The notes: a model not told the origin generated them from the letters alone. 64,000 nt of DNA from Myxococcota bacterium (GCA_034005005.1 JAVEVO010000002.1:4389-68388), one strand, 5' to 3'. Positions 15,770 to 29,633 are shown, counted from the stretch's first letter. Made by a program: numbers and translations.

Positions 15770-18373
15770 GTGATCGTGGATTTCGCGCACACGCTCTTTC
15801 CCACCGCACGCGCCCTGGCCCGCACCCGGAGCCGCCGATCGGTCGCCTGGGGCCTCGCCTCACTGCTGTTGCTCGCCGGGAACCCCGCGCCAGCCCGCCC
15901 CCTGGCCGGCGTCGTGCGCTGCGCGCAGACGGGCCAGCCCATCGCGGACGCCACGGTGCAGGTGGAGGGTGGTGACGGCCGGGCCCGGACCGCGGCCGAC
16001 GGGCAGTTCACCCTGGAGGTGCCGGAAAACGAGGCGCTGCGCCTCTCCGCGGCCGCGCCCGGCTTCTTGCCGGCCTGGTCCCCGGCCCTGCCCCCCGACT
16101 TCACCGGCCCCCTGGAGCTCCGGCTCCCGCCGCAGCCCACCGACCCGCTGTTCGCCACCGTCGTCACCGCGACCCGGGCGACCAGCGGGCGCACCCCCGC
16201 GACCTTCACCAACCTCGACGCGGCCGAGCTGCAGCAGCGGAGCTGGGGCCAGGACCTCCCTATCCTCCTCGAGAGCCAGCCGGGCGTCTTCGCGACCTCG
16301 GACGCGGGCAACGGCATCGGCTATACGACCCTGCAGCTCCGGGGCTTCGACGCCCGCCGGGTGGGGGTCCAGATCGACGGGGTGCCCCTGAACGACCCCG
16401 CGGAGCAGCTCGTCTACTGGGTCGACGTCCCGGACCTCGCGTCCTCCCTGCAGGACGTCCAGGTGCAGCGAGGGATCGGCTTTGCCGGCACCAGCCACTT
16501 CGGCGGCACCATCAACCTGGTCACCGACGACGCGGCCCTGACGCGCCGCTTCGAGCTGACCACCGGCCTCGGCAGCTTCGGCACCTTCCGCAACGCCCTG
16601 CGCCTCGGCTCGGGGCTCGTCGACAACAAGTACTCGATCTCCGGGCGCTTCTCCCGCGTGGTCTCCGACGGCTACCGGGAGCGCAGCGGCAGCGAGCTCT
16701 GGGGGTACTTCCTGACCGCCCGCCGCTTCGGCCCGAGCTGGTCTCTGCGGCTCACCACCTTCGGCGGACAGGAGCAGACCCGGCTGGCCTTCAACGGCAC
16801 GCCCGCGTCCCTGCTGGCGGCGGGCGAGCGGCGCCTGAACCTCGACGACTACTACGCCGCACCGGACAGCCCGGCCAACACCTACCCAAAGAGCCTCGAC
16901 CACTTCCAGCAGCCCCACACCCAGCTCAGCGTGGAGTGGCGCCCCTTGCCCGAGCTGGAGCTGCGCACGACCTTGTACGTGATCCAGGGGCGCGGCTGGT
17001 ACCAAGGTTACAAGGCCGACCGGGACCTGGCCGACTTCGGCTTTCCGGACAGCGATGCGGAGTCGGACCTGATCCGCCGCAAGCACGTCGCGAAGCTCGA
17101 GCTCGGCACGGTCGGCCAGGCCGCCTGGCGGCGGGAGGCCCTCGGGCTGACCCTCGGCTGGAGCCTCGACTGGCTGAGCTCGGACCACTGGGGCGAGCTG
17201 CTCTGGATCGCGGCCCCCCCCGCCCAGGACGGCTGGCCCGATGACTACTACCGCTACACCGAGGAGAAGACGACCCTGTCGACCTACCTCGACGCGGAGT
17301 ACCGGCTGCTCTCCAGCCTGCGCCTGCTCGGCGAGCTGCAGCTCCGCCACGGCAGCTTCGCGTTCCGGCACGCGGACGCCGGCAGCTTCGGCCCGGCCGA
17401 GCGCTACGAATTCACGGACGCGCGCACCCTGCTCAACCCCAAGCTCGGCCTCCTGTACGACCTCGTGCCCCGGCCGGCCGCCGCCGGGGGCGGGAGCGCG
17501 CCGGCCGCCGCCACGACCCTCCGGCAGGGCGAGCTGTACCTGCTCGTCGGCAAGAGCGGCCGGGAGCCGGCGGCCGACGACTACTGGGACGCGTGGCAGG
17601 GCCCGGACGATCGCGGGGCCGCGCCCCTCTTCCGGACCTTCACCGCCAACGAGGAGCGGGTCCAGGCCACCGGCTCCCGGCTGAACACGGAGACCTTGCT
17701 CGACGTCGAGCTCGGCAGCCGCTGGTCCCTTCGTCCCGATCTTCCCGGCCTGCGCTCGCTGAGTGCAACCTTGGCCCTGTACTGGATGGACTTCCGCAAC
17801 GAGATCCTCACCGCGGGCGGCGTGGACGACGATGGCAACCCCGTGAAGGGCAACGCCAAGCGCTCGATCCACCGGGGCCTCGAGGGCAGCTTGCGGCTGA
17901 TGCCGTGGCGCGGGCTGGCCCTCACCGGCAACCTGACCCTGGCCGACAACGTCGCGGTGGACCTGATCCAGCGGACCTGGGACGAGGAGGGCCAGGTGGT
18001 GCAGCTCGACCGCGGGGGCAACCCCCTCCCGGGCACACCCGTGACCCTCGCCAACCTCGGGCTCGCCTGGTCCGTCGGCCCCGCCACCCTGGAGCTCACG
18101 GGCAGCCACACCGGGCGACGCTACCTCGACCTGAGCGGCTTGGCCGAGCGCAGCCTCGACCCCTACTTCCTGCTGCACGCCGGGGCCCGGCTCGAGCTGG
18201 AGCGGCGGCTCGGGCTGGAGCGGCTGCAGCTCGCCCTGACCGTGCGCAACCTGCTGGACACCCCCCACGAGACCCACGGCTGGTGGGACGAGTGGTACGG
18301 CGACGGCGGGGAGGCGATCCTCTTCCCCGGCGCGCCCCGGCAGGTGCACCTGAGCCTGACCCTCGGGCTTTAG
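15770..18373 (+). CDS. TonB-dependent outer-membrane receptor with N-terminal carboxypeptidase-regulatory-like domain
   Basis: Signal peptide, then a CarbopepD_reg-like segment (VRCAQTGQPIADATVQVEGGDGRARTAADGQFTLEVP). The plug domain reads …QDLPILLESQPGV…GYTTLQLRGFDARRVGVQIDGVPLND…. A long beta-barrel follows. The GTG at 15776 may be the true start (GGAGG 5 nt upstream). Confidence 0.85.
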   Translation: MIVDFAHTLFPTARALARTRSRRSVAWGLASLLLLAGNPAPARPLAGVVRCAQTGQPIADATVQVEGGDGRARTAADGQFTLEVPENEALRLSAAAPGFLPAWSPALPPDFTGPLELRLPPQPTDPLFATVVTATRATSGRTPATFTNLDAAELQQRSWGQDLPILLESQPGVFATSDAGNGIGYTTLQLRGFDARRVGVQIDGVPLNDPAEQLVYWVDVPDLASSLQDVQVQRGIGFAGTSHFGGTINLVTDDAALTRRFELTTGLGSFGTFRNALRLGSGLVDNKYSISGRFSRVVSDGYRERSGSELWGYFLTARRFGPSWSLRLTTFGGQEQTRLAFNGTPASLLAAGERRLNLDDYYAAPDSPANTYPKSLDHFQQPHTQLSVEWRPLPELELRTTLYVIQGRGWYQGYKADRDLADFGFPDSDAESDLIRRKHVAKLELGTVGQAAWRREALGLTLGWSLDWLSSDHWGELLWIAAPPAQDGWPDDYYRYTEEKTTLSTYLDAEYRLLSSLRLLGELQLRHGSFAFRHADAGSFGPAERYEFTDARTLLNPKLGLLYDLVPRPAAAGGGSAPAAATTLRQGELYLLVGKSGREPAADDYWDAWQGPDDRGAAPLFRTFTANEERVQATGSRLNTETLLDVELGSRWSLRPDLPGLRSLSATLALYWMDFRNEILTAGGVDDDGNPVKGNAKRSIHRGLEGSLRLMPWRGLALTGNLTLADNVAVDLIQRTWDEEGQVVQLDRGGNPLPGTPVTLANLGLAWSVGPATLELTGSHTGRRYLDLSGLAERSLDPYFLLHAGARLELERRLGLERLQLALTVRNLLDTPHETHGWWDEWYGDGGEAILFPGAPRQVHLSLTLGL

Positions 18374-18377
18374 CCGG

Positions 18378-19850
18378 GTGAGCCTCCTCGACCGCCTGGT
18401 GATCCTGGCCTACCTCGGGGCCACCCTGGCCCTCGGGCTGGGGCTGGGCGCGTCCTGGCGCCGGCCCGCCCCGGGAGGCAACGACCGCGAGAGCTACCTG
18501 CTCGCGGGGCGACGCCTCAGCCTGCCCGCGTTCGTCGCCGCGCTGGTCTCGAGCTGGTACGGGGGCGTGCTCGGGGTCGGCGAGTACACCTTCAGCTACG
18601 GCATCTCCAACTGGCTCGTCTTCGGCGTGCCCTACTACCTGGCCGCGTTGATCTTCGCCCTGCTCCTGGCGGGGCGGGCCCAGCGGGCGCGGGTCCTCAG
18701 CCTGCCCGAGCAGCTCCGCCAAGCCTACGGCAGCGGCGCGGGCGCGCTCGCCGCGGGCGTGGTGGTGGCGACGACCCTGCCCGCCGCCTACCTGCTCACC
18801 GTCGGCCTGCTGCTCGGGCTGGCCTTCGACCTCCCCCTCTGGCAGGGGGTGCTCGCCGGCGCCCTCTTCGCGGTCGTCCTCAACTGGGCCGGCGGGCTGC
18901 GCTCGGTGGTGCGCAGCAACCTGCTGCAGTTCGGGCTGATGTACGGCGGCTTCGCGATCCTGCTCGGCTCCCTGATGCTGGAGCACGGCGGGCTCGGCTT
19001 CCTGCGGGCGAACCTCCCCGCGAACCACCTCACCTGGAGCGGCGGCCGGCCCCTGCAGGCCATCCTGGTGTGGTATCTGATCGCGCTGGCCACCCTGGTG
19101 GAGCCGACCTTCTACCTGCACTGCTTCGCGGCGAAGAGCCCCCAGGTGGCCCGGCGCGGGCTGCTGATCTCCATCGTCGCCTGGTGCGGTTTCGACGCCT
19201 TGACCACCTTCAGCGGACTGTACGCGCGGGCCCTGCTCGATCCGACCCTGGGGCTCTCCGCGGAGGCCTATCCCCGCCTTGCGGCCCAGACCCTCCCCCC
19301 CGGCCTGCTCGGCCTGTTCTACGTGGCCCTGTTCTCCACGGTGCTGTCCACCATCGACAGCTACCTCTTCCTCTCCGCCACCTCCCTCGGCCCGGACCTG
19401 CTCGGGCAGCTCGGCGACCGCTGGCGCCGCTGGCGACGGACCGCGGCGGGGCCGACGACCGCCAGCGCGACGGCCCCTCCCTCCCCAGCGAGCGGCGACG
19501 GCCAGCGCCGGCTCACCCGGGTCGGCCTGCTGCTCTCCGCCGGGCTGGCCTCGGGGATCGCGCTGGTCGCCCGCTCCGTGGTCGATATCTGGCATGATTT
19601 CGGGACGATCGGCACCGCGACCCTGCTGGTCCCCGCGGTGGCCTCCTTCTTCCCCCGCCTGCGCCTCTCCCCCCGGGGGGCCTTGCTGGGCATGGCCCTG
19701 ACCCTGCCCGTCGCCCTGGTCTGGACCCTCAGCCGCCGCTTCTCGACCACGGGCGAGCACCTGCTCGGCGTCGAGCCGATCTTCCCCGCCCTGGGGCTCG
19801 GGTTGCTGGTCTGGGGGATCGACCGGCTCCGGGGCCGGCGCACACGCTGA
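18378..19850 (+). CDS. Sodium:solute symporter (SSF) family transporter
   Basis: Start is 4 nt after the TonB receptor stop, so probably same operon. Protein MSLLDRLVILAYLGATLALGL…SYLLAGRRLSLPAFVAALVSSWYGG… has a 12-13 TM SSF pattern. Confidence 0.8.
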   Translation: MSLLDRLVILAYLGATLALGLGLGASWRRPAPGGNDRESYLLAGRRLSLPAFVAALVSSWYGGVLGVGEYTFSYGISNWLVFGVPYYLAALIFALLLAGRAQRARVLSLPEQLRQAYGSGAGALAAGVVVATTLPAAYLLTVGLLLGLAFDLPLWQGVLAGALFAVVLNWAGGLRSVVRSNLLQFGLMYGGFAILLGSLMLEHGGLGFLRANLPANHLTWSGGRPLQAILVWYLIALATLVEPTFYLHCFAAKSPQVARRGLLISIVAWCGFDALTTFSGLYARALLDPTLGLSAEAYPRLAAQTLPPGLLGLFYVALFSTVLSTIDSYLFLSATSLGPDLLGQLGDRWRRWRRTAAGPTTASATAPPSPASGDGQRRLTRVGLLLSAGLASGIALVARSVVDIWHDFGTIGTATLLVPAVASFFPRLRLSPRGALLGMALTLPVALVWTLSRRFSTTGEHLLGVEPIFPALGLGLLVWGIDRLRGRRTR

Positions 19851-19858
19851 GGTCGTCT

Positions 19859-21139
19859 TCAGCCGCAGCCGCCGACGACCTTGGCCCGGGCCTGGATCGT
19901 GACCTTGCGGGGGTAGGTGTGGGTGGGCCAGACCGGGGGGGCATTGACCGGATCGACGCCCGGCATGCCGCAGAAGTAGGGCAGCACTTCCTTGCACGCG
20001 CAGTCGGGATGCGCCGCGTAGGCCCGCTGCCCGACCGCCCGGCGGAAGCGGTAGCCGAACTCTTCGTTCCCGGAGTCTTTTTCGGCAAGACAGGTCGAGG
20101 GCGGGTACTTGGCCAGCCAATTCGCGTAGCCGCCCTCGATGATGTAGAGGTTGCCCACCCCCGCGGCGCTGAGGGTCTTGAACAGCCCGACCGCCGCCGC
20201 CTCGCCCCGGCCGATGAGCAGCACCGCGGTGCTCGCCTCCTGGGCCTTCAGCTTCTGGAGGAGGGCCGGCGCGAGGGGCCGATCGGGATCGACGCGCAGG
20301 GCGCCGTAGAGATGGAAGACGTTGTACTCCCGCTCAGACCGCACATCCAGGACGATGGTACTAACGCCACCCTGCTTGCGGAGGTCGGTCAGCTCGGCCG
20401 GATGGATGAAGACGGAGCGGTCGGCCAGCCTCTGCTCCGTGGCCGCCGCGATCCACTGCCAGCGATCCGCGAGATCGGGCTGCCCGAGCACGGCGACGAG
20501 CAGGGCGACGCCGAACAAGGCGCCGCCACCGATCCGGACGAGACGGGGTACGGGCCCCCGCACGACGCCGAAGCGCCGCTCCGCGAGCTCGGCCAGGGCG
20601 AACGCCCCCACGGCCATGCCCACCAGCCCGAGCAGCACGACGCCGGCGTCGACGCCGAAGAGGTCCATGAGGGTGAAGCGGCCGAGGTGGCTGCTGTGAT
20701 AGAAATCCTCGAAGTTACCGACAGTTTCGCCAAAGAGCAGGGTCCCCAGCCCGACCCCGACGAGGAAGACCATCCCGTCGATCTTCAGGGTGCTGGCCGC
20801 GACGAGGCTGGTCCCCGGGCAGAAGCCGCCGATGATGAAGCCGACGCCCCCGATCAACCCGCCGACGATGCCGGGCCAGAGGTAGGTCGGGTTGACGAAG
20901 ACCCGATCGAAGTCGAGCAGCTCCAGGCTGCAGGCGAGGAAGATCAGGAGGCTGGCGACGACGATACCCGTGAACATGACCTTGAGCACGGTCATCTCGT
21001 GCAGGTAGAACTGCGCGGCCAGCTTCCGGCTGTCGCCGAAGCCCGAGAGCTCCAGCACCACGCCGAAGCCCAGCCCGATCGCGAAGAAGATCAGGAACTG
21101 GGCGAAGCCGCCGAGCACGTGGACGTCGAAGGGAGCCAT
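19859..21139 (-). CDS. YeeE/YedE-family sulfur-compound transporter domain fused to C-terminal rhodanese domain
   Basis: Sulf_transp-like N-terminus (…GGVGFIIGGFCPGTS…) and rhodanese-like C-terminus (…TIVLDVRSEREYNVFHLYGALRV…). AGGAGG RBS upstream of ATG 21139. Confidence 0.8.
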   Translation of the reverse strand: MAPFDVHVLGGFAQFLIFFAIGLGFGVVLELSGFGDSRKLAAQFYLHEMTVLKVMFTGIVVASLLIFLACSLELLDFDRVFVNPTYLWPGIVGGLIGGVGFIIGGFCPGTSLVAASTLKIDGMVFLVGVGLGTLLFGETVGNFEDFYHSSHLGRFTLMDLFGVDAGVVLLGLVGMAVGAFALAELAERRFGVVRGPVPRLVRIGGGALFGVALLVAVLGQPDLADRWQWIAAATEQRLADRSVFIHPAELTDLRKQGGVSTIVLDVRSEREYNVFHLYGALRVDPDRPLAPALLQKLKAQEASTAVLLIGRGEAAAVGLFKTLSAAGVGNLYIIEGGYANWLAKYPPSTCLAEKDSGNEEFGYRFRRAVGQRAYAAHPDCACKEVLPYFCGMPGVDPVNAPPVWPTHTYPRKVTIQARAKVVGGCG

Positions 21140-21149
21140 GGTCTCCTCC

Positions 21150-21677
21150 TCAGGTCCACTGCTTGCGCAGGGAGTAGGCCAGCAGGTACCCGCCGGCGAA
21201 CACCGCGAACATGAACGCGAAGCTACCGACCGAGAGCACCGCGCCGCCGCTGAGAGCCTGGCCCGAGGTGCAGCCCCGGGCGAGCCGGGCGCCGTAGCCC
21301 ATCAGGGCGCCGCCGACCAACGCGAGGAGGAGGCGGGTCCCGGCCTGGACCCGCGGGCCTCGCCGCAGCTCGAGCTTGAAGCGCCGGTTGAAGAGGCCGC
21401 TCAAGGCCCCGCCCAGCATGGTGCCGAAGAGCATGAAGACCGAGCTGTGATCGAAGGGGTTGCGGCTGCCGCCCGCGGTCTCCGCGAGGCCCGCGACCCG
21501 GTCGACGTGGTCCGGCGCGGCCAGGGCGACCAGACCCGACTGCACCCGGCTGATCGCGCCCGAGGCGCCCAGCCCGCCGCCCGTGACGAAGAAGGCTAGA
21601 AAGAGCACGACGCCCAGCAGACAGCCTCCCAGGTAGGGGTTCAGGTAGGGTCGCGGCCCCCTGGCGTCGTCAGACAT
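21150..21677 (-). CDS. YeeE/YedE-family membrane protein (second half-transporter)
   Basis: …YGARLARGCTSGQALSGGAVLS… is the Sulf_transp motif. ATG 21677 (MSDDARGP) with AGGAGG 6 nt upstream is preferred over the GTG at 21692. Confidence 0.75.
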   Translation of the reverse strand: MSDDARGPRPYLNPYLGGCLLGVVLFLAFFVTGGGLGASGAISRVQSGLVALAAPDHVDRVAGLAETAGGSRNPFDHSSVFMLFGTMLGGALSGLFNRRFKLELRRGPRVQAGTRLLLALVGGALMGYGARLARGCTSGQALSGGAVLSVGSFAFMFAVFAGGYLLAYSLRKQWT

Positions 21678-23907
21678 CACCGCCTCCTTCACCGGGCGCG
21701 GGCCCTTCGTCGAGGATGTCGTAGCCCGTGATCATCGCCCGCAGGTTGCTGCCGAGGGTGTGCCCGGTGGTGATCAGGTACAGGTGCGCCACCACGAAGG
21801 CCAGCAAGGCCCAGGAACCGAGGTTGTGCAAGGGTGCGATCAGGTACAGCCCGGGCAGGTCGACGGCCAGCCCCGGCTGGCGGCCGGTCAGCCAGATCAG
21901 GATCCCCGTGACCACCTGGAAGGGGATCAACACGTTGAGCAGCATCAGGTAGGTCACCTGCTGCAAGGGGTTGAGGTGGCGCTGCGGGGTGCGGGGCAGC
22001 GGATGGGGCGCGCCCACGAAGATGCCGTGGAGATAGAAACGGGCCTGGCTCAGGACATCCCGGAACAGGGTCGGCCCCCGCGGGATGAACTGCCGGATGT
22101 CGGTGGTGACGAGGTGGTAGAACAGGCTGAGCACCGCATTGACGATCAGCACCAGGGCGAGGGCGTTGTGCAGCCGCACCGCGTGGGCGAACCCGAGCAA
22201 CGGGAAGCAGTCGACGAAGTGCACCTCGAGGCCCGTGAGGAGCAACAGCACGATGCTCGCCGCCATCAACCAGTGCCACAGCCGCTGGTAGCGGGTGTAC
22301 AGGTAGACCTGCCGGTTGGGCCCGTGAGTTGCCGGACGACGTCGCCGGGTCACGAAGCGCACCAGGCCGTGCACGAAGATGCCGGCGAAGGCGAGGAGGA
22401 ACAGGCCGAAGCCGGTCCGATCGGACCAGCCCTCCCGGCTGTGCCCGAAGATGTAGACCGTCGCCGTGGCCGGCGGCTCGTAGACCAGCTCACGGGCTGG
22501 ACCTGGCAGCAGACGCCCCCCGGCGAGGGGCCCCGTGGAGGGGAGCTCCAAGCGCAGACCCGGAGGGAGGGCCCCGACCAGGGGGATGGGCAGCGCCAGG
22601 CGGCCCTGCTCCCCGTGGCAGCGACCGCAGGCCATGGTCGCGCCGGCCCGCTCCTGGGTGCCATGGTGCAGGCCGTGGGCCTCGACGCTGCCAGTCAGCC
22701 GCGGCTGCGTGACCCCCTGCTGCCGGAGCAAGTCTGCGACCAGCGCGACCTTGGCCTCCGTGTCGAGGTGCTGCTCCGGCGCGGCCAGGCGCCCGTCGTG
22801 ATCGGTGTCGAGCTGGGCCAGGAGTGCAGGCTTGTAGCGCCCGCGCTCCAGCAGGGCCGCGGCGAGGGTCGTCAACGGCACGTCCCCGCCGCTGGCCGCA
22901 TCCTGCCAGCCGAGCAGCGTGACCAGGTTGAAGGGCCGCCAGCGAGGATCCCCGCCATGGGCCGAAGGGACGGGGAGCAAGGCGGGCGAGAAGGGCGAGG
23001 TGAGGCGGACGTTGGGGGAGACGCCCGGGTCCAGGGGCTGGTTGTGATAGGTCACCAGCGCACTGCCGGTCTCCATGACCAAGGTCGCATCGATCACCGC
23101 AACCGTAGGACCAAAGCTCTCGGGGGCATGGCAGGTCGAGCAGGCGACCCGCTCGAAGTGACGCTTGGGGTAGGGCAGCTCGGGGTGGACGGCCAGGGGC
23201 TCGTGGCAGCTCGTGCAGGGGGCGGCGCCGAGCCGGTGGTCGGGCCGCACCAGGTAGCTGCCGAGGCTCACCTGACGGGGATCCCGCTTCAGATGCGGTA
23301 GGCCGGCCCCCGGACGTGAGCGGGCCGGGTGGTTGGCCGACCGGTGGCAGTCGGTGCAGGTGAGCAAGCGGGCCGCGTGGATGTCGAAGGGCCGGTCGAG
23401 GCCATCCTTGCCCACCAGGTTGAGGTGGCTGGCGGCCATCTGCTGGGAGGAATAGACCACGCCGCTGGCCTTGGTCAGCGAGTGGTGGTCCTCGATGAGG
23501 GCCGTCGGCGTCCAGTCGTAGTCCTCGGGGAGTGCGAGGGGCCAGGGATCGGTGTGCACCAGGCCGTGACAGCGACCACAGCGGCTCGTGGTGGGTGCGG
23601 AGAGGTCGATCTCTTCCCGCACGAGCCGCCCTTGCTCGTCGAGCTGCTTTTCGCCGATGTCCCAGGGCTGGTCACGGTGGCAGACGGAGCACTCGAGACC
23701 AGGATGGCTGTTGTGTTGCTCGATGTACGCGACGTCGTGGCACTGGCTGCAGGTCGCGGCCTCCGAGAAGACCCCGCCCTGCTCGAGGAGGGACCCGCCC
23801 TCCTCGTTGCGCGCCACGAAGGTGGGGTGCAGGGGGTTGGGCGCGGCGAGGGCCAACGACGGCAGCAGCCAGAGGAGGAGCAGAGGAAACGGGCCACGCA
23901 CGCTCAT
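21670..23907 (-). CDS. CbcL-like fusion: periplasmic multiheme c-type cytochrome (7+ CxxCH) plus C-terminal diheme cytochrome b (HydC/FdnI-like) membrane domain
   Basis: Signal peptide MSVRGPFPLLLLWLLPSLALA. CxxCH motifs: CSQCH, CSVCH, CGRCH, CTDCH, CTSCH, CSTCH, CGRCH. C-terminal cytochrome b (PF01292-like) helices with conserved His (…YTRYQRLWHWLMAASIVLLLLTGLEVHF…APLHNLGSWALLAFVVAHLYLI…). Confidence 0.8.
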   Translation of the reverse strand: MSVRGPFPLLLLWLLPSLALAAPNPLHPTFVARNEEGGSLLEQGGVFSEAATCSQCHDVAYIEQHNSHPGLECSVCHRDQPWDIGEKQLDEQGRLVREEIDLSAPTTSRCGRCHGLVHTDPWPLALPEDYDWTPTALIEDHHSLTKASGVVYSSQQMAASHLNLVGKDGLDRPFDIHAARLLTCTDCHRSANHPARSRPGAGLPHLKRDPRQVSLGSYLVRPDHRLGAAPCTSCHEPLAVHPELPYPKRHFERVACSTCHAPESFGPTVAVIDATLVMETGSALVTYHNQPLDPGVSPNVRLTSPFSPALLPVPSAHGGDPRWRPFNLVTLLGWQDAASGGDVPLTTLAAALLERGRYKPALLAQLDTDHDGRLAAPEQHLDTEAKVALVADLLRQQGVTQPRLTGSVEAHGLHHGTQERAGATMACGRCHGEQGRLALPIPLVGALPPGLRLELPSTGPLAGGRLLPGPARELVYEPPATATVYIFGHSREGWSDRTGFGLFLLAFAGIFVHGLVRFVTRRRRPATHGPNRQVYLYTRYQRLWHWLMAASIVLLLLTGLEVHFVDCFPLLGFAHAVRLHNALALVLIVNAVLSLFYHLVTTDIRQFIPRGPTLFRDVLSQARFYLHGIFVGAPHPLPRTPQRHLNPLQQVTYLMLLNVLIPFQVVTGILIWLTGRQPGLAVDLPGLYLIAPLHNLGSWALLAFVVAHLYLITTGHTLGSNLRAMITGYDILDEGPAPGEGGGDV

Positions 23908-25322
23908 CGTCTGCCTCCGACCCCGGCCGGGTCCGCGTCGTAGCCGAGGGCCGCCCAGTCCAGCCGGCCGCCAGCACCATGGCAATCGGCGCAGGCGAGG
24001 GCCTGCCCGGCCTGGCGCACCAGGTGGTTGAGGGGCCAGTACATCGCGGTGGCGACGAAGCCGTACTGCCCGCTGTACGCGAGGCCGGCCTGCTGGGCCC
24101 CCTGGCGGAGCGCGCCGTCCCAGTCGAAGGTCGTCCAGTACCCGGTCGGCCCGGTGGTCTGCGGGGTGAGCAGGTGCTCGTGCTGGAGGTCGTAGGGCTG
24201 CTTGCCGCGGTGCACCTTGAAGGGATAGATCTTCGATTTCTTGTCGCCTTTGGCGCCGAGGGGCGGATTCAGCTCAGTCGTCCTCGCGGGATCGACGGGG
24301 TCACCAGCGAGGTATCGCCCCGTGCGACCATCCCACCAGCGGTACTCGGGGACCAGGCTCTGGCCGTAAACGAACGCGCCCTTCTTCTTCTGGTACTGGT
24401 GTTCGTCCTGGGGACGCGTGCCGTCGCCGGCCTGGCTCCAGTCCCAGGCGAGCTTGGTCGGGGCGAGGTGCGCGTGGGTGGGGATGTGGCAGGTCGGGCA
24501 GGCCACCGCGGCGAGGTGGGTGTCGAGCCGGGCGTCCTGGTGCCGGTGACGCTGGTGGCAATCCTCGCACGCGAGGCTGTGGGCACGGTCGACGCTCACC
24601 GCGATGGAGCGGCCCCGGAGCGCGTGCTCCCGGCCGCCGTGGCAGTCGATGCAGAGCATCCCCTGCAGCCCCATGTGCACATCGTCCTTGGCCTGGGGAG
24701 TGGTCAGCCCCGTGTTCAGGTCACCGTGCTTCACGCCCATGCCCCCGCCGCCGAAGAAGTGGCAGACACCGCAGTTGTCGAGGCGGGGGTAGCCGACCGA
24801 GCGGGCCACAGCCCGCAGATCGGTCCCGGGGACGGGCAGCCCGGCGTCACCCTTGAGGTAGCTGCCGGACCAGTCGTGGCAGACCAGGCAGTCGACGTTC
24901 TCCTCCCTGGTGAAATCATAGCGACCGTCCCGCCAGCCGTAGCCCGCGTGGCACTTGGTGCACATCGTCTCGTTGCTGGTGATGCCGATGCAGAAGTTGT
25001 TGATCAGGTTGCGCTTGCCCACGGCGTGGATGCCGGTGCGGCCCGGGATCTCTGCTGGCGGGGCCAGCCAGGTGAAGTGGGTGCTCCCCAGCAGTTGCCG
25101 GCCGGCGTTCGGGTGGCAGCGCAGGCAGGCCCGGGTCACCTCGGGCCCCTCCTGAAACGGCTGGTCGAAGAAGGAGGAATGGTCGAGGTGGGCGCGATGC
25201 CCGGGGGTCGGGGGACGGGAGGAGGCCGTTGGCCGCCAGAGCCCCCATCCGGCCAGCAAGAGGCCCCCGGCCGCGACGAGCGCGAGCAGGGAGAGCAAGA
25301 GTCGCTTTTTCGTCAACGCCAC
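23904..25322 (-). CDS. Octaheme c-type cytochrome, tetrathionate-reductase (OTR) family-like
   Basis: Signal peptide and eight CxxCH motifs (CLRCH, CTKCH, CLVCH, CGVCH, CIDCH, CEDCH, CPTCH, CADCH). GTG start at 25322. ATGA overlap with the downstream CbcL-like gene. Confidence 0.7.
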   Translation of the reverse strand: MALTKKRLLLSLLALVAAGGLLLAGWGLWRPTASSRPPTPGHRAHLDHSSFFDQPFQEGPEVTRACLRCHPNAGRQLLGSTHFTWLAPPAEIPGRTGIHAVGKRNLINNFCIGITSNETMCTKCHAGYGWRDGRYDFTREENVDCLVCHDWSGSYLKGDAGLPVPGTDLRAVARSVGYPRLDNCGVCHFFGGGGMGVKHGDLNTGLTTPQAKDDVHMGLQGMLCIDCHGGREHALRGRSIAVSVDRAHSLACEDCHQRHRHQDARLDTHLAAVACPTCHIPTHAHLAPTKLAWDWSQAGDGTRPQDEHQYQKKKGAFVYGQSLVPEYRWWDGRTGRYLAGDPVDPARTTELNPPLGAKGDKKSKIYPFKVHRGKQPYDLQHEHLLTPQTTGPTGYWTTFDWDGALRQGAQQAGLAYSGQYGFVATAMYWPLNHLVRQAGQALACADCHGAGGRLDWAALGYDADPAGVGGRR

Positions 25323-25381
25323 CTCCGGGGGGCGAATTGTCGTCTACGCTCGACCCGGAAGGCGATAGCAGACCGCACAGC

Positions 25382-26278
25382 TCACCGCCAGGGCAAATGA
25401 GCGGTCGAGGAGGCCCCGGAGGGGGGTGCGCTCCAGGAGCAGACCAGGGCGTGAGTCCCCACGGGCAGCCCGACGTGCTCGGCGATCACCGGGCACTTCG
25501 CCTTGAGCAGGAAGACCAGCCGACCAGAGACGCCGGAGAGGGTCTCGAAGTTGCCCTGGCCCTTGGCGAGGATCAGGTCCGCACGGCGGAAGCGTTCCTG
25601 GAAGTCCGGGCTGCAGTCGTCGAGGATCGTGCCAGGGGCGTCGGAGCCGTTGGCGATGACCGCCACACGTCCGTCGAACCCCGCGTCCGCCACGTCCGCG
25701 AGGGTCGCGTCGTTGAGCACCGGACGACCACGCACCGCGACCGTCACACGCGCCGGCCCGAGCTGCTCGACGAGCAGGCGGTCCACGACGATCTCCCCGG
25801 CGTTGTCCGCCAGGCAAAGGATGTCGGTGGCCGAGTGGACGGCTTGGCGGAACTGCTCCAGATCACCGTGCAAGGTCACCGGAGCCGCTGCGAGGGCCTC
25901 CCGGACCTGGGCGTCGGACAGCTCGCCCGCGACACCGAGGTCGATGGCGTTGGCCGCGACCGCCAGGCCGGCAGCGGTGAGCAGGGGATCGGCCGCCTGG
26001 TCCACCCGGGCGGCGAGCGCGGGTAGCGCCTCCCGGGCCAGCCGGTTGAAGCGCTGCTTCGCCGCCAGGTACGGATCGGCCACGCCGGTCAGCTCCCGGA
26101 GGCGCCGATGGATCCGCTGCCCCACCCAGGGCGGCGGCCGCTGCAGGTCGAGCTCCAGGGTCAGGCGCAACACATCCCGCAGGATCTGCTCGTGGATCTG
26201 CGGATCGGGGGAGAAGCGCCGGGCCGACTCGAGGCTCTGCCGCAGCAGGCAGGGGATGCAATCGAGATAGGTGTGCAT
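25382..26278 (-). CDS. DUF89 (ARMT1-like damage-control phosphatase/methyltransferase fold) protein
   Basis: MHTYLDCIPCLLRQ…ILCLADNAGEIVVD… matches the DUF89 N-terminal and core motifs. Confidence 0.7.
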   Translation of the reverse strand: MHTYLDCIPCLLRQSLESARRFSPDPQIHEQILRDVLRLTLELDLQRPPPWVGQRIHRRLRELTGVADPYLAAKQRFNRLAREALPALAARVDQAADPLLTAAGLAVAANAIDLGVAGELSDAQVREALAAAPVTLHGDLEQFRQAVHSATDILCLADNAGEIVVDRLLVEQLGPARVTVAVRGRPVLNDATLADVADAGFDGRVAVIANGSDAPGTILDDCSPDFQERFRRADLILAKGQGNFETLSGVSGRLVFLLKAKCPVIAEHVGLPVGTHALVCSWSAPPSGASSTAHLPWR

Positions 26279-26604
26279 CGGAGCGATCAGACCTCCCCTC
26301 CCGGGCAGTGGTCAGGCCCGGGAGACCGAGAAGCTGGACGACCGGCCAACCGCCGCGCGTCGCTGACGCCTGGGCCAGGCCGGAGCGAGGCCCTGGCGAG
26401 GCGGCAAGGTAGCACTGCCAGGAGGGTCGGCACCAGTCCGGGGAGCGGACATGGGTGAGGAGCGAGTACCGAGGCGACGGCCATCCCCCGTGAAGGCCTC
26501 CCGACGAGGTGGCGACGATCTCGCGAGCAGGTGCCCGACCGCAGCGTAACCCTGCGAAAGGACGTGCGCGGGCCGTCTTTTTGGGGGGCGCATGCCTCTT
26601 TGCC

Positions 26605-26634
26605 TTGCAATCGGTGGGACCCTCTCGGTATATC
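26605..26634 (+). promoter_or_regulatory. Candidate promoter TTGCAA-N18-TATATC upstream of the ATP-grasp gene
   Basis: Read directly: ttgcaa (26605-26610) then tatatc (26629-26634), about 95 nt upstream of ATG 26731. Confidence 0.3.
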
Positions 26635-26730
26635 CCGAAAGGATTGAGAAATCGACGCAGCCGGCGTGTCGAGGGGTCCTGTTCCGACGGGCGGGGTCAT
26701 CGCCGAGACGTCGGGAGAGGAGGACCCAGC

Positions 26731-27855
26731 ATGCCGGCCACACTCCCCGCACCCGATATCCCCGTGATCCTGCTGTATTCCCTCGATCCGCAGTGGGAGC
26801 CGGAGGAGCGGACGGGCTGTCGCGCCGAGGCGGCCGAGCTGGTCGCCGCGATGGCCCGGGAGGGGCGCCAGGTTCGCCCCGTCGAGGTCGCCAGCCTCGA
26901 TCCGCTCCGCCCGCTGCGCGGGCTCGATCCCAGCTCCTGCGTGATCTTCAACTGGTGCGAGTCGCTGCCCGGCATCCCGCGCAGCGACGCCCTGATCGCG
27001 CAGGCCCTGGAAGAGGCCGGCTTCACCTTCACCGGCTCCACCGCCGCGGTGCTCGCGCAGAGCTGGGAGAAGCTCCAGGTGAAGCTGCTGCTCGACCAGG
27101 AGGGCATCCCGACGCCCCGCTGGATGCTCTGCCAGCGACCGGGGCTCGCCGGCTGGAACCGCTACCCGGCCATCGTCAAGCCCTGCCGCGAGCACTGCAG
27201 CGTCGGCCTCGACGAGGAGTCGGTGGCCCTCGGGCCGGTCCAGTTGCGGCATCAGATCGCCCGGATCCTGCTCCAGCACCGGCAGCCGGTCCTGGTCGAG
27301 GAGTTCCTCGACGGCCGGGAGGTCCACATCACGGTCTGGGGGGATGGCCGGCTCGAGCTGCTGCCGGCGGCCGAGATGGACTTCTCGGCGTTCGGACGCA
27401 TCCAGGACCGGCTGTGCAACTTCGACTCGAAGTACGTCCCCGGCTCCAGCCACTACGAGCAGATCACCCTGCGGCTGCCGGCACCGCTCACCGCCCGGGA
27501 GCAGCAGCAGCTCACGGCCGTCTGCCTCGCCACCTACCGGGCCCTGGGCTGTCGCGACTACGCCCGGATCGACCTGCGCCAGGCCCCGGACGGGACCTTC
27601 CTCGTCCTCGACGTCAACCCCAACGCCGACCTGTGCCGCGAGACGAGCATGGCCCAGAGCGCAGAGCTGCTGGGCCTGAGCTGGGGGGCGATGGCCGTGC
27701 GGCTCGTGGACCTCGCCCTGCAGCGGCACCCGGCCGTGCGGCGGCGCGGACCGGCTCCGGCGGCGCGTCCCCCCGCCGCGCTCGGGCCCCCCCGGCCGCA
27801 ACCGGCCAGCACCGCCCTCCCGACCGCCGCACGCTGGGCGACGGCCGCGGGCTGA
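26731..27855 (+). CDS. ATP-grasp enzyme, D-alanine--D-alanine ligase family-like
   Basis: GGAGAGGAGG RBS then ATG 26731. The ATP-grasp core is …AIVKPCREHCSVGL…VLVEEFLDGREVHITVWGDG…YARIDLRQAPDGTFLVLDVNPN…. Confidence 0.7.
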   Translation: MPATLPAPDIPVILLYSLDPQWEPEERTGCRAEAAELVAAMAREGRQVRPVEVASLDPLRPLRGLDPSSCVIFNWCESLPGIPRSDALIAQALEEAGFTFTGSTAAVLAQSWEKLQVKLLLDQEGIPTPRWMLCQRPGLAGWNRYPAIVKPCREHCSVGLDEESVALGPVQLRHQIARILLQHRQPVLVEEFLDGREVHITVWGDGRLELLPAAEMDFSAFGRIQDRLCNFDSKYVPGSSHYEQITLRLPAPLTAREQQQLTAVCLATYRALGCRDYARIDLRQAPDGTFLVLDVNPNADLCRETSMAQSAELLGLSWGAMAVRLVDLALQRHPAVRRRGPAPAARPPAALGPPRPQPASTALPTAARWATAAG

Positions 27856-27968
27856 GCCCTCCTCGAGCCGCCCGGCCGACGCGCCCCCCTTCCCCCGCCT
27901 TGCCCACTCTCTTCGCCGCGTGTAGAAGGCACGCCCGCAGCAGGGGGCCATCGCCCCCCGGGAGGTCG

Positions 27969-29633
27969 ATCATCTTCGCGCAGCTCGCCAGCGTCTTGCC
28001 CCAGACGGCCCACGCCATCCTGGTGCTGAGCCTGGTGGCCGCGCTCGGCCTCGGCCTGGGGCGGATCCGGGTGCTCGGGGTCAGCCTCGGGGTCGGCGGC
28101 GTGCTCTTCGTCGGGCTGCTCTTCGGTCACCTCGGGGTGACCATCGACGCCCACGTCATGGAATTCCTCCGGGAGTTCGGGCTGATCCTCTTCGTCTACG
28201 CCATCGGCGTGCAGGTCGGCCCAGGCTTCGTCGCCTCTCTGCGGCGGCACGGGCTGGTGCTCAACGCGCTCGCGGCGGCCATCGTGCTCGGCGGCGCGGC
28301 CATCGCCTGGGGGATCGGTCGACTGGGCGACATCCCGGCCGGCGTCACCGTGGGGCTGTTCTCGGGTGCGACCACCAACACGCCGAGCCTCGCGGCCGCG
28401 CAGCAGGCCCTGCTCGATCTCGGCCAGCGGGGCCGCGCGCTGGTGCAGCAGCCCGGGCTGGGCTACGCGGTCGCCTACCCCTTCGGCGTGCTGGGCGTCA
28501 TCCTGGTCATCGCCTTGCTGCGCAAGGTCCTGCGCATCGATCCCCTGCAAGAGGCGATCGCCCTGCGGCAGTCCGAAGCGCTGCCCGCACCGCAGTCCCT
28601 GAGCGTGCTCGTCGAGAACCGCAACCTCGCCGGGCTCGCGCCGGGCGCGATCCCCGGCCTGAGCGAGGCGCGGGTGGTGATCTCCCGGCTGCTGCAGGAC
28701 GGCGTCCAGCGGGCGGTCCGCCCGGAGCTGCGGGTCCAGGTCGGCGACGTGCTGCACCTCGTGGGCCCGCCGGACGGGCTCGAGAAGATGCGGCTGATCA
28801 TCGGTCGCCAGGCCGACGTCGACCTGCAGAACGTGCCCAGCCCGGTGCTCGCCCGCTCCCTCGTCGTGACCCGCGCCGCAGCCCTCGGCCGCACCCTCGC
28901 CGAGCTGCAGTTGCCCCAGCGCTACGCGGTGACCGTGACCCGGGTCTTCCGGGCCGGCGTCGAGTTCACCCCCACGGGCTCCCTACCCTTGCAGTTCGGG
29001 GACCGCCTGCTCTGCGTCGGCGAGGAGCAGGCCCTCGACGTGGTGGCCCGGCAGGAGCTCGGCAACGCCGTCGAGCTGCTGCAGCAGCCCCAGCTCGCGC
29101 CGGTCTTCATCGGGCTGGCCCTCGGCGTGCTGCTCGGCAGCGTCCCGGTCGCCTTGCCGGGGGTGCCGGTGCCCGTGAAGCTGGGCCTGGCCGGCGGCCC
29201 CCTGGTCGTCGCCATCGTCCTCTCGCGGCTCGGCCACCTCGGCCGCCTGGTCTGGTACATGCCCCTCGGGGCCAACCTGATGATGCGCGAGCTGGGCATC
29301 GCCCTGTTCCTGGCCTGCGTCGGGCTGCGCGCCGGCGATCAGTTCGTGGCGACCCTCACCCACGGCGACGGCCTGAGCTGGATGGCCTGGGCCACCGCGG
29401 TCACCCTGGTGCCCGTGCTCGTCGTCGCCCTCTTCGCCCGGCTGAAGCTGCGCCTCCCCTTCCCGACCCTCTGCGGCCTGCTCTCGGCCAGCATGACCAA
29501 CGTACCAGCGCTGGCCTACTCGGCCTCGCTGCACGAGAGCGACGCCCCCCACGTCTCCTATGCCACGGTCTACCCCCTGGTGATGATCCTGCGGGTGGTC
29601 ACCGCGCAGCTCCTGGTGATGCTCCTGGCCTGA
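27969..29633 (+). CDS. AAE (aspartate:alanine exchanger, YidE/YbjL) family transporter with central TrkA-C/RCK_C domains; start codon ambiguous
   Basis: …IIFAQLASVLPQTAHAILVLSLVAALGLGLGRIRVLGVSLGVGGVLFVGLLFGHLGV…EFGLILFVYAIGVQVGPGF… matches the YidE N-terminus, followed by two RCK_C-like segments and a second transporter half. There is no ATG, GTG or TTG at the expected position. The nearest in-frame candidate is TTG 27900. Confidence 0.7.
   Translation: MIFAQLASVLPQTAHAILVLSLVAALGLGLGRIRVLGVSLGVGGVLFVGLLFGHLGVTIDAHVMEFLREFGLILFVYAIGVQVGPGFVASLRRHGLVLNALAAAIVLGGAAIAWGIGRLGDIPAGVTVGLFSGATTNTPSLAAAQQALLDLGQRGRALVQQPGLGYAVAYPFGVLGVILVIALLRKVLRIDPLQEAIALRQSEALPAPQSLSVLVENRNLAGLAPGAIPGLSEARVVISRLLQDGVQRAVRPELRVQVGDVLHLVGPPDGLEKMRLIIGRQADVDLQNVPSPVLARSLVVTRAAALGRTLAELQLPQRYAVTVTRVFRAGVEFTPTGSLPLQFGDRLLCVGEEQALDVVARQELGNAVELLQQPQLAPVFIGLALGVLLGSVPVALPGVPVPVKLGLAGGPLVVAIVLSRLGHLGRLVWYMPLGANLMMRELGIALFLACVGLRAGDQFVATLTHGDGLSWMAWATAVTLVPVLVVALFARLKLRLPFPTLCGLLSASMTNVPALAYSASLHESDAPHVSYATVYPLVMILRVVTAQLLVMLLA

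Follow-up and report, generated by a model that had tools for sequence, protein, structure and literature searches.

What does an octaheme cytochrome c of the OTR (octaheme tetrathionate reductase) family do when its gene is found next to those of a membrane quinol dehydrogenase, of the two halves of a YeeE/YedE transporter and of a rhodanese? This question is raised by a locus on the minus strand of a 64,000-nucleotide stretch of Myxococcota DNA (GCA_034005005.1, JAVEVO010000002.1:4389-68388; ca. 72% GC; hereafter the window), in which five co-directional open reading frames occupy positions 19859-26278. All five are present as outlined by the original prediction, and profile matches confirm the families proposed there for their products, namely DUF89 (gene 1), an OTR-like cytochrome (gene 2), a cytochrome b/c fusion (gene 3, hereafter the c/b fusion) and a split YeeE/YedE, the second half of which is fused to a rhodanese (YeeE half A, gene 4; YeeE half B, gene 5). 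In silico analyses indicate that genes 2 to 5, hereafter the cassette, are a four-gene unit that has probably spread horizontally, and we hold with fair confidence the general picture in which their products act as one periplasm-facing machine. Their features point, at about the same strength, to a quinol-driven periplasmic sulfur reductase that would possess a cysteine-arm carrier reminiscent of Sud and SoxY as well as a sulfur channel.

Genes 2 to 5 form a conserved unit that excludes DUF89

When an alignment of gene-5 homologs was scanned against one genome per species, relatives turned up in at least 582 genomes. The 80 loci retrieved represent Myxococcota, Eisenbacteria, Anaeromyxobacteraceae, Chloroflexota/Anaerolineae, Leptospiraceae, Actinomycetota and others. 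In every genome locus having enough upstream DNA (about 75 of the 80, from at least five phyla), with a single exception, OTR, c/b fusion, YeeE-A (half A) and YeeE-B-Rhd (half B with its rhodanese domain) follow one another in this order on one strand. This exception, L018 (503-8317), is the sole genome locus devoid of the upstream cassette and carries two copies of the gene-5 homolog with a phage-type integrase in between, a situation that probably results from a rearrangement or from the insertion of a mobile element. A reverse survey was based on 80 OTR-anchored metagenome loci, 37 of which extend at least 4.3 kb downstream; YeeE-B is present in 33 of these 37, the remaining four corresponding to the most distant OTRs. 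Such a gene order for genes 2 to 5 is far beyond chance. Besides the four genes, the genome loci showed no additional neighbour that is conserved. The cassette is common in Myxococcota, Anaerolineae and Eisenbacteria of soil, freshwater and sediment.

DUF89, which the original prediction placed at the head of a five-gene operon, was found in none of the 80 genome loci and in none of the 80 metagenome loci, and no functional link to the other genes was found. It is therefore ruled out as head or member of the unit and represents a lineage-specific neighbour, hence its unexplained appearance in the original prediction. Elsewhere, its position is taken by a co-directional gene of the ArsR family (26 loci, the commonest situation), by an Rrf2 gene (six loci including L087, the closest relative), by a divergent sigma54 activator or by nothing. 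These regulators were considered as clues to the signal sensed and set aside as uninformative, since their matches to ArsR (TsoR, BigR), Rrf2 (IscR, NsrR, CymR) and sigma54 (NifA, NorR) models all fall far below the family cutoffs; TsoR, in addition, belongs to a selenoprotein operon that is unrelated to the question raised by the cassette.

Junctions inside the cassette are tight. The stop codon of the OTR gene and the ATG of the c/b fusion share an ATGA overlap (23904-23907) and the start of YeeE half A overlaps the stop of the c/b fusion gene by 8 nt (21670-21677), both overlaps having been correctly described at the outset; genes 4 and 5 are separated by 10 nt that contain a GGAGG, and the spacing between DUF89 and OTR is of ca. 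59 nt. An independent JGI gene call on the same contig gives identical 745-aa and 175-aa products for genes 3 and 4, and a protein identical to that of gene 5 is on record from a Myxococcota metagenome-assembled genome (MAG) and from JGI metagenome 3300027914. A scan of the locus yielded no promoter of the sigma-70 type, and shuffled sequence contained terminator-like sites at least as often as the locus, both analyses being uninformative at this GC content.

The octaheme cytochrome belongs to a distinct clade of the OTR family

Judging from its profile and structural matches, the octaheme protein is a true OTR-family member. It scores 525.6 bits with TIGR04315 (curated cutoff 375), and its sole match in a PDB sequence search is the Shewanella OTR 1SP3 (E 1.7e-131), with no ONR, HAO, NrfA or MccA chain within E 0.01. 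The protein starts with a hydrophobic signal or anchor, and each of its eight CxxCH motifs (aa 66, 121, 145, 184, 224, 252, 275 and 444) aligns to a motif of 1SP3. Lys103 (codon 25014-25016), located in a GKRN that aligns with GKKN, is the counterpart of 1SP3 Lys56, and Cys111 that of Cys64. The OTR crystal structure has been known since 2004, the year in which Mowat et al. are said to have described Lys56 as the axial ligand of the active-site heme (heme 2). When 65 cassette OTRs and 40 Shewanella-type OTRs were aligned, 128 positions proved to be at least 90% conserved and identical in the two types, including C111 and an invariant K103; fixed differences were found at just two positions, and a neighbour-joining tree set the two types cleanly apart. 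The cutoff passed, the match to 1SP3, the Lys56 and Cys64 equivalents and the tree thus settle a choice between families that the original prediction had left open, in favour of OTR and not of ONR, HAO or NrfA.

The cassette OTR and the Shewanella oneidensis OTR (1SP3) share ~48% identity over the whole mature protein, eight CxxCH, the lysine (K56/K103) and the neighbouring cysteine, and they differ in their surroundings. Shewanella and Marinobacter loci comprise a monoheme cytochrome c, DUF3373 and OTR, OTR stands by itself or in tandem in those of Desulfuromonas and Malonomonas, and no cytochrome b, YeeE or Cys-arm protein gene was found at the loci examined in these four genera. The cassette is therefore a distinct genomic context of a distinct OTR clade. 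Passing mentions of a cytochrome b subunit adjacent to OTR exist for T. dismutans (PMC4911364) and for Beggiatoaceae (PMC6449678).

As a separate observation, OTR is preceded by a small monoheme cytochrome c and a ~570-aa DUF3373 protein both in L081 (4694-8404; Shewanella-type) and in L082 (4900-8383; Marinobacter-type), an arrangement that may represent another conserved OTR context.

The c/b fusion as a putative quinol dehydrogenase

In the product of gene 3, one transmembrane (TM) helix links a 7-CxxCH domain to a cytochrome b domain, and a hydropathy scan predicts five TM helices after the signal peptide. The protein matches TIGR02125 as well as the PhsC model NF011582 (129 bits for a cutoff of 204); no PDB sequence match was obtained, and no CbcL-specific model matched in the NCBIfam search. 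It had been described as CbcL-like, which holds for the architecture only, CbcL of Geobacter sulfurreducens (PMC6295460) having the same order of parts with an N-terminal periplasmic multiheme c domain and a C-terminal cytochrome b of the HydC/FdnI/PhsC type, and not for the heme count: nine CX2CH and six TM helices are found in CbcL (PMC6295460), whereas the c/b fusion has seven CxxCH (seven, six or five in its relatives) and five predicted TM helices. Furthermore, the c/b fusion would serve an adjacent dedicated reductase, unlike CbcL, which is involved in extracellular electron transfer, and it is replaced in some relatives by a plain 212-aa cytochrome b. An electron path from quinol to cytochrome b, then to the multiheme domain and to OTR would fit this domain architecture. 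Added support for such a path comes from variants (L111, L120 and L122; e.g. L122:6848-11599) in which OTR and a 7-heme domain are fused into one 15-CxxCH polypeptide that has no cytochrome b domain.

A split YeeE that would place gene 5 domains in the periplasm

Both YeeE halves match PF04143 (76.3 bits for half A and 32 bits for half B, with a cutoff of 27) and both retain the cysteine loops of the family. Residues 82-170 of half A align to StYeeE 244-327 (8K1R/6LEO), C293 loop included, and its ARGCTSG loop, aligned to GGCNIG, is the counterpart of StYeeE Cys293; in half B, Cys107 of the GGFCPGTS loop is the counterpart of StYeeE Cys91, and GGFC107PGTS is invariant in the half B alignment. 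Half B further comprises a 4-TM core, a TM5 that corresponds to the H7 linker helix, then a cytoplasmic loop with five Arg and an extra helix, TM6. In the StYeeE structure, H1-H6 and H8-H13 are mutually inverted via linker H7, with C22 and C91 facing the cytoplasm and C293 the periplasm (PMC7449682).

The rhodanese domain and the tail that follow TM6 are predicted to lie in the periplasm, beside OTR. This placement relies on the positive-inside count, on the StYeeE topology together with the alignment of half A to H11-H13, and on split variants having a signal anchor. In half B, direct sequence reading gives eight K/R in predicted inside loops and two outside, and the central loop of half A is strongly basic (seven K/R), which fits an N-in, C-in topology. 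In the split variants L113 and L122, TM6, rhodanese domain and tail form a separate protein with a signal-anchor-like N-terminus (MKARINPRVLGAGFLLAASGALALYGQP...), the tail of which ends in GGCG or GGCD; the GGCD end belongs to the variant cassette of L111, L120 and L122, in which YeeE-B is split in this way.

Compared with YeeE/TsuA-YeeD and PmpA/PmpB (PMC7449682, PMC11073785, PMC11582611), the cassette halves have in common the Sulf_transp match and both essential loop cysteines, and their two-gene organisation resembles that of PmpA (C-terminal half) and PmpB (N-terminal half). Unlike in these systems, half B keeps the H7 linker helix and carries in addition the sixth helix, the rhodanese domain predicted to be periplasmic and the Cys arm. 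TsuA, moreover, is a single 9-TM polypeptide with an adjacent YeeD/TusA, whereas YeeE is split over two genes in the cassette. TsuA models score 16-40 bits on the YeeE halves for cutoffs of 400-645, and the YedE equivalog cutoffs are likewise far above the scores obtained.

A rhodanese domain devoid of its catalytic cysteine and a terminal cysteine arm

The rhodanese domain is predicted with an AlphaFold pLDDT of ~90 and its top Foldseek matches are all rhodanese folds. Its active-site loop reads VLLIGRGEAAA in gene 5 and FLxSNGE in the family consensus, neither having a Cys, and a residue other than Cys is aligned with the catalytic Cys of 6MXV, the best structural relative. With the catalytic Cys missing family-wide, the domain is not a classical sulfurtransferase, and the activity ascribed to it by the original prediction has to be abandoned.

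A cysteine is conserved at the other end of the putatively periplasmic part, in the C-terminal tail, for which no Pfam match was obtained even at E up to 10. This penultimate residue, Cys425 (TGC codon at 19865-19867), is part of a GGCG that forms the C-terminal end in 120/120 top homologs of gene 5 and in 102 of 113 tails of the fetched loci, the others including GGCS, GGCD, GVCS and three GGCGG (L052, L090 and L099). An exhaustive HMMER search gave 222 clusters (50% identity) at E <=1e-30, and a Cys occurs in the last three residues of 85 of the 95 full-length representatives; in distant representatives it is the very last residue (...GGC or ...EGC), and it always comes after a basic stretch. 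In public annotation, gene 5 only appears as a 'rhodanese-like domain-containing' or 'YeeE/YedE family' protein. By analogy with known systems, we propose that the tail may act as a swinging arm bearing a carrier cysteine.

Two periplasmic carriers are of interest in this respect. Sud of Wolinella succinogenes (1QXN), which serves PsrABC, is cited in PMC6378623 (after Klimmek 1999) as a rhodanese-like carrier of polysulfide in the periplasm that depends on its single Cys. Sud and gene 5 have in common a periplasmic rhodanese fold and one cysteine thought to present sulfur to a quinol-linked reductase, and the family profile gives a weak match to Sud (E 0.011); in Sud, however, the cysteine is located in the rhodanese active-site loop and the protein is soluble, whereas in gene 5 it is located at the C-terminal tip of a protein that would be tethered to the channel. 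SoxY, the C-terminal end of which is GGCGG, shares with the arm a Gly-Gly-Cys-Gly(-Gly) that closes the chain behind a basic, beta-strand-like stretch, the arm being in most cases (GGCG) one Gly shorter and in three relatives exactly GGCGG. The arm has no sequence or fold similarity with the SoxY Ig-like domain, and no SoxZ accompanies it; the likeness is motif-only and probably convergent.

The resemblance to SoxY raises the alternative of an oxidative direction, in which thiosulfate or sulfide would be oxidised in the periplasm, OTR would conjugate sulfur to the arm Cys as SoxXA does with SoxY, and electrons would reach the quinone pool. Besides the arm itself and its GGCGG variants, soxY and soxZ adjoin otr in sulfur-oxidising lucinid symbionts (PMC11237559), and a weak thiosulfate oxidase activity of OTR is on record (PMC12949373). 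We nonetheless regard this direction as improbable, given that the PhsC-type cytochrome b and the Psr/Phs-like partners (see below) are those of reductive systems and that no SoxZ, SoxB or SoxXA gene is found among the conserved neighbours of cassette loci. Myxococcota and Anaerolineae are, in addition, menaquinone organisms, and the thiosulfate/tetrathionate couple (+198 mV) cannot reduce menaquinone.

Terminal TGA codons in two Anaerolineae loci

In two Anaerolineae MAG loci, L046 (11240-11290) and L068 (11237-11287), the terminal Cys codon is replaced by TGA, the end of the gene then reading GG-TGA-GGC-TAA. Between the two loci, identity amounts to 42/60 in the upstream coding sequence, 9/9 over TGA-GGC-TAA, 2/7 in the spacer and 18/49 in the 3' flank, and a 15-nt hairpin, GCCGCA-NNN-TGCGGC, is identical at 13 of 15 positions, with differences in the loop only. 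The hairpin (6-7 bp) is predicted in both loci with a loop G at +23 counted from the U of UGA, a distance that matches the fdhF SECIS (selenocysteine insertion sequence) of E. coli. A search of L046 and L068 against Rfam for a SECIS element gave no match, and the folding z-scores of the two hairpins were not significant, so that the argument for selenocysteine (Sec) rests on the position of the codon and on the conservation footprint. On this basis, the arm tip quite likely encodes Sec in these two loci, and the GG-U-G variants probably represent a candidate new selenoprotein family. If so, the terminal residue would be marked as a reactive redox or nucleophilic centre, for which the GCUG tail of thioredoxin reductase provides a parallel.

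This apparent Sec could also be taken as a sign of selenium (or tellurium) handling, in which OTR would reduce selenite or a comparable oxyanion, binding of selenium would fall to the Cys/Sec arm together with the rhodanese domain, and its import to the YedE-like channel. YedE relatives are linked to selenium transport in passages of PMC11582611, selenoprotein annotations exist for some OTRs and YeeE proteins (PMC13188914), and weak matches were found between half A and selen_YedE_FdhT and between the rhodanese domain and a (seleno)protein rhodanese family. Those NCBIfam selenium-family matches fall short of cutoff by a factor of 10 and do not surpass the TsuA ones, and no selD, yedF or other selenium gene was detected among the conserved neighbours. 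Furthermore, the presence of Sec indicates a reactive redox residue in the protein concerned and not a selenium substrate, and the PhsA/Psr-like partners indicate sulfur. We accordingly give little credence to a role in selenium handling.

The YeeE pair occurs with heme-based and molybdenum-based partners

Distant relatives of gene 5 reveal other arrangements. In L168 (P0310, tail QGGC), OTR (564 bits with TIGR04315) is followed by a PhsC-like cytochrome b of 212 aa that stands alone, and then by YeeE-A and YeeE-B-Rhd, and L173 has the same pattern with a partial cytochrome b. P0312 and P0306 are found directly behind a three-gene reductase module (L171:2-4256 and L172:1-4959) composed of a PhsA-like molybdopterin subunit, the best NCBIfam match of which is the thiosulfate reductase PhsA, of a TtrB/NrfC-like 4x[4Fe-4S] subunit and of an NrfD/PsrC-like membrane subunit. 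There, relatives of genes 4 and 5 are present with tails GGGC and REGC, and L172 continues with a Pyr_redox_2 (SQR/NDH-2-like) gene. The YeeE-AB/Rhd-Cys pair behaves as a portable accessory, either of OTR with a cytochrome b or of a Psr/Phs-type enzyme. The swap between OTR and a PhsA/Psr-like partner looks like a non-orthologous displacement of the reductase, which provides the strongest evidence that the cassette OTR clade acts on sulfur substrates of the same class. OTR in the cassette may thus be, by analogy, a heme-based counterpart of the Psr/Phs/Ttr-type sulfur reductases.

Another short contig, L170 (25-3792), carries a distant relative (tail REGC) flanked by an 81-aa rhodanese-like fragment and by a 577-aa SufS-like class V aminotransferase, which hints at a third kind of partner.

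The original prediction had read the locus as coherent with a quinol-linked module for respiring tetrathionate/thiosulfate or a related sulfur or nitrogen oxyanion. Of this, the quinol path is retained on the ground of architecture and the sulfur link on that of YeeE synteny, the latter being reinforced by the strictness of this synteny and by the YeeE-pair relatives located behind PhsA/Psr-like molybdoenzymes; free tetrathionate as the substrate is unproven. In a plain tetrathionate or polythionate respiration, OTR would reduce free tetrathionate with quinol electrons, the YeeE pair would import thiosulfate, and the rhodanese domain and Cys tail would form a binding, gating or regulatory accessory. 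The architecture and synteny of the cassette are equally compatible with this scheme, and electron flow from menaquinol to tetrathionate is thermodynamically downhill. Members of the OTR family reduce tetrathionate in vitro (Shewanella; Beggiatoaceae, 93 umol/min/mg; PMC6449678), and YeeE/TsuA is a thiosulfate importer (PMC7449682). In Shewanella ANA-3, however, a genetic study of 2026 found that OTR, which belongs to a different subclade, is not induced by tetrathionate and is dispensable for tetrathionate respiration, its deletion having no effect, and the physiological role of OTR is explicitly described as unresolved (PMC12949373). The scheme also leaves unexplained why a flexible basic arm should end in an invariant Cys for which Sec can stand in, as well as the sharing of the accessory pair with PhsA/Psr-like enzymes; the YeeD partner required by TsuA (PMC11073785) was not found nearby, although this last test is a weak one. 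Taken as a whole, plain tetrathionate respiration appears rather unlikely.

The least probable of the alternatives is a nitrogen-oxide module, with OTR acting as a quinol-dependent nitrite, hydroxylamine or nitric oxide (NO) reductase, in dissimilatory nitrate reduction to ammonium (DNRA) or in detoxification, and with YeeE and rhodanese being unrelated or protective. In vitro, the Shewanella OTR works best on nitrite and hydroxylamine according to the account of Atkinson 2007 given in PMC12949373, and Rrf2 genes with weak NsrR-like matches or sigma54 activators with NorR-like matches are found upstream of the cassette in some lineages. These regulator matches are far below the family cutoffs, the ArsR family is the commonest upstream and the conserved neighbours include no nitrogen-cycle genes. 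OTR is strictly co-inherited across phyla with a sulfur-family channel and a Cys arm, and the accessory pair is also found with PhsA/Psr-like enzymes.

A proposed mechanism and the points that weigh against it

The sulfur reductase that we favour may be pictured as follows. The di-heme-b domain of the c/b fusion would take electrons from menaquinol and, as suggested by the architecture, hand them on via the seven c hemes of the same protein to OTR with its eight hemes. The two YeeE halves would assemble antiparallel into a YeeE/TsuA-type channel in which the two essential loop cysteines are kept, and the sixth helix of half B would put the Cys-less rhodanese domain and the basic arm in the periplasm next to OTR. 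The penultimate Cys of the arm (probably Sec in two lineages) would serve as a covalent sulfur carrier, in the manner of Sud or of the SoxY GGCGG arm, and would hold sulfane or thiosulfonate sulfur as a mixed (per)sulfide. The arm-held sulfur would then be reduced by OTR and/or passed to the periplasm-facing Cys loop of half A, and onward via Cys107 of half B, for import. Candidate substrates include polysulfide or persulfide, thiosulfate-derived adducts and tetrathionate. The more specific proposal that the physiological substrate of the cassette OTR clade is sulfur covalently attached to the C-terminal Cys/Sec arm (persulfide, polysulfide or thiosulfonate), and not a free oxyanion, is put forward tentatively and is open to considerable doubt.

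Several points weigh against the proposed mechanism. The substrate, the direction of sulfur transfer and the contact between arm and OTR are all deduced from sequence. With purified OTRs, reduction is good for nitrite and hydroxylamine but often poor for tetrathionate (PMC12949373), and some of the upstream regulators, being of the Rrf2 or NorR-like sigma54 types, could equally indicate nitrogen oxides. No TusA/YeeD-like open reading frame was detected in the 160 loci, a weak test that included no positive control; in the absence of such a partner nearby, import by a TsuA-like mechanism is not assured, TsuA requiring YeeD (PMC11073785). Homology between the tail and SoxY was considered and rejected, since the tail has neither a Pfam match nor a SoxY-like fold, and only a motif-level likeness is kept. 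The rhodanese loop is not cationic. The Sec reading is based on two MAGs that are related to each other, and stems of at least 6 bp were found in the same window of sequence in 16 of 74 Cys-type loci used as control, which lowers the weight of the hairpin when taken alone. Finally, the Psr-like contexts come from two short contigs (L171 and L172).

Features and neighbouring genes in the window

The coordinates of the genes and domains discussed above are given in Table 1.

Table 1. Genes and domains of the locus, with positions in the window
Feature	Position	Strand	Remarks
DUF89/ARMT1-like damage-control phosphatase homolog (gene 1), 298 aa	25382..26278	(-)	PF01937 5e-60; NCBIfam equivalogs far below cutoff
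OTR-family octaheme c-type cytochrome (gene 2)	23904..25322	(-)	472 aa from GTG start (JGI: 470 aa); TIGR04315, 1SP3
Putative quinol dehydrogenase, c/b fusion (gene 3), 745 aa	21670..23907	(-)	7 CxxCH + PF01292 3.7e-26
Periplasmic 7-CxxCH domain of c/b fusion	about 22423-23835	(-)	CxxCH motifs, after signal peptide
4-helix PhsC/FdnI/HydC-type cytochrome b domain of c/b fusion	about 21673-22422	(-)	Ni_hydr_CYTB match
YeeE/YedE half A (gene 4), 175 aa	21150..21677	(-)	Sulf_transp 76.3 bits; C-terminal half (H8-H13) of full-length YeeE
Gene 5 whole (YeeE half B + rhodanese + tail), 426 aa	19859-21139	(-)	Sulf_transp, PF00581
YeeE/YedE half B, membrane part, aa 1-225 of 426-aa product	20465..21139	(-)	Sulf_transp N-terminal half
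Rhodanese-homology domain, aa ~240-346, without catalytic Cys	20102..20422	(-)	PF00581 7.5e-11; predicted periplasmic
C-terminal tail, aa 347-426 + stop	19859..20101	(-)	Conserved Cys350, Cys390; variable linker; basic strand RKVTIQARAKVV; GGCG end

Genes that surround the locus are not conserved with the cassette. Downstream of gene 5 and convergent with it are an SSF transporter (18378-19850) and a TonB-dependent receptor (15770-18373), and upstream of DUF89, in divergent orientation, are an ATP-grasp D-Ala-D-Ala-ligase-like gene and an Asp-Al_Ex/TrkA_C transporter (26509-29633, plus strand).

Two other genes of the window, both on the plus strand, are worth mentioning. One encodes a predicted lipoprotein of 3329 aa (29842-39831) with a lipobox and a (GE)n linker, in which 10 CxxCH (aa 328-1009) are followed by at least 27 tandem Cys-rich 'NGxETDxDCGG' repeats and which ends with a Trp/Tyr-rich C-terminal domain of ~300 aa; with 361 Cys overall, it would be an unusual giant multiheme Cys-repeat surface protein. 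The other, at ~10409-14086 (coordinates converted from the gene table of the public contig L085), encodes a 1225-aa protein with a PF13699 eCIS_core match.

Implications for OTR and YeeE families

All parts of the cassette belong to known families and their combination is apparently undescribed: no description of the four-gene unit, of the protein combining a YeeE half, a rhodanese domain and a terminal Cys, of the Sec variants or of the alternation between OTR and Psr-like partners was found in the open-access literature, and no curated NCBIfam equivalog covers genes 3 to 5. If the more specific proposal of arm-bound sulfur as the substrate is true, the four proteins would constitute a previously unrecognised carrier-dependent, quinol-driven sulfur reductase and importer, and heme-based (OTR) as well as molybdenum-based (Psr/Phs-like) reductases would share the YeeE-AB/Rhd-Cys pair as a portable accessory that supplies a substrate arm and a channel. 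The cassette extends the known YeeE family by a split form with a periplasmic decoration, and two lineages probably having Sec at the arm tip add a likely new selenoprotein.

For the OTR family, a large cross-phylum clade gains fixed partners in the form of a quinol dehydrogenase dedicated to it, a channel from a sulfur family and a Cys arm in the periplasm. This fixed set, together with the sharing of the accessory pair with PhsA/Psr-like molybdoenzymes, argues for a sulfur role of the cassette OTR and provides a testable clue to OTR function. Metagenome surveys that score 'otr' as tetrathionate respiration should accordingly treat the cassette clade as a distinct system.

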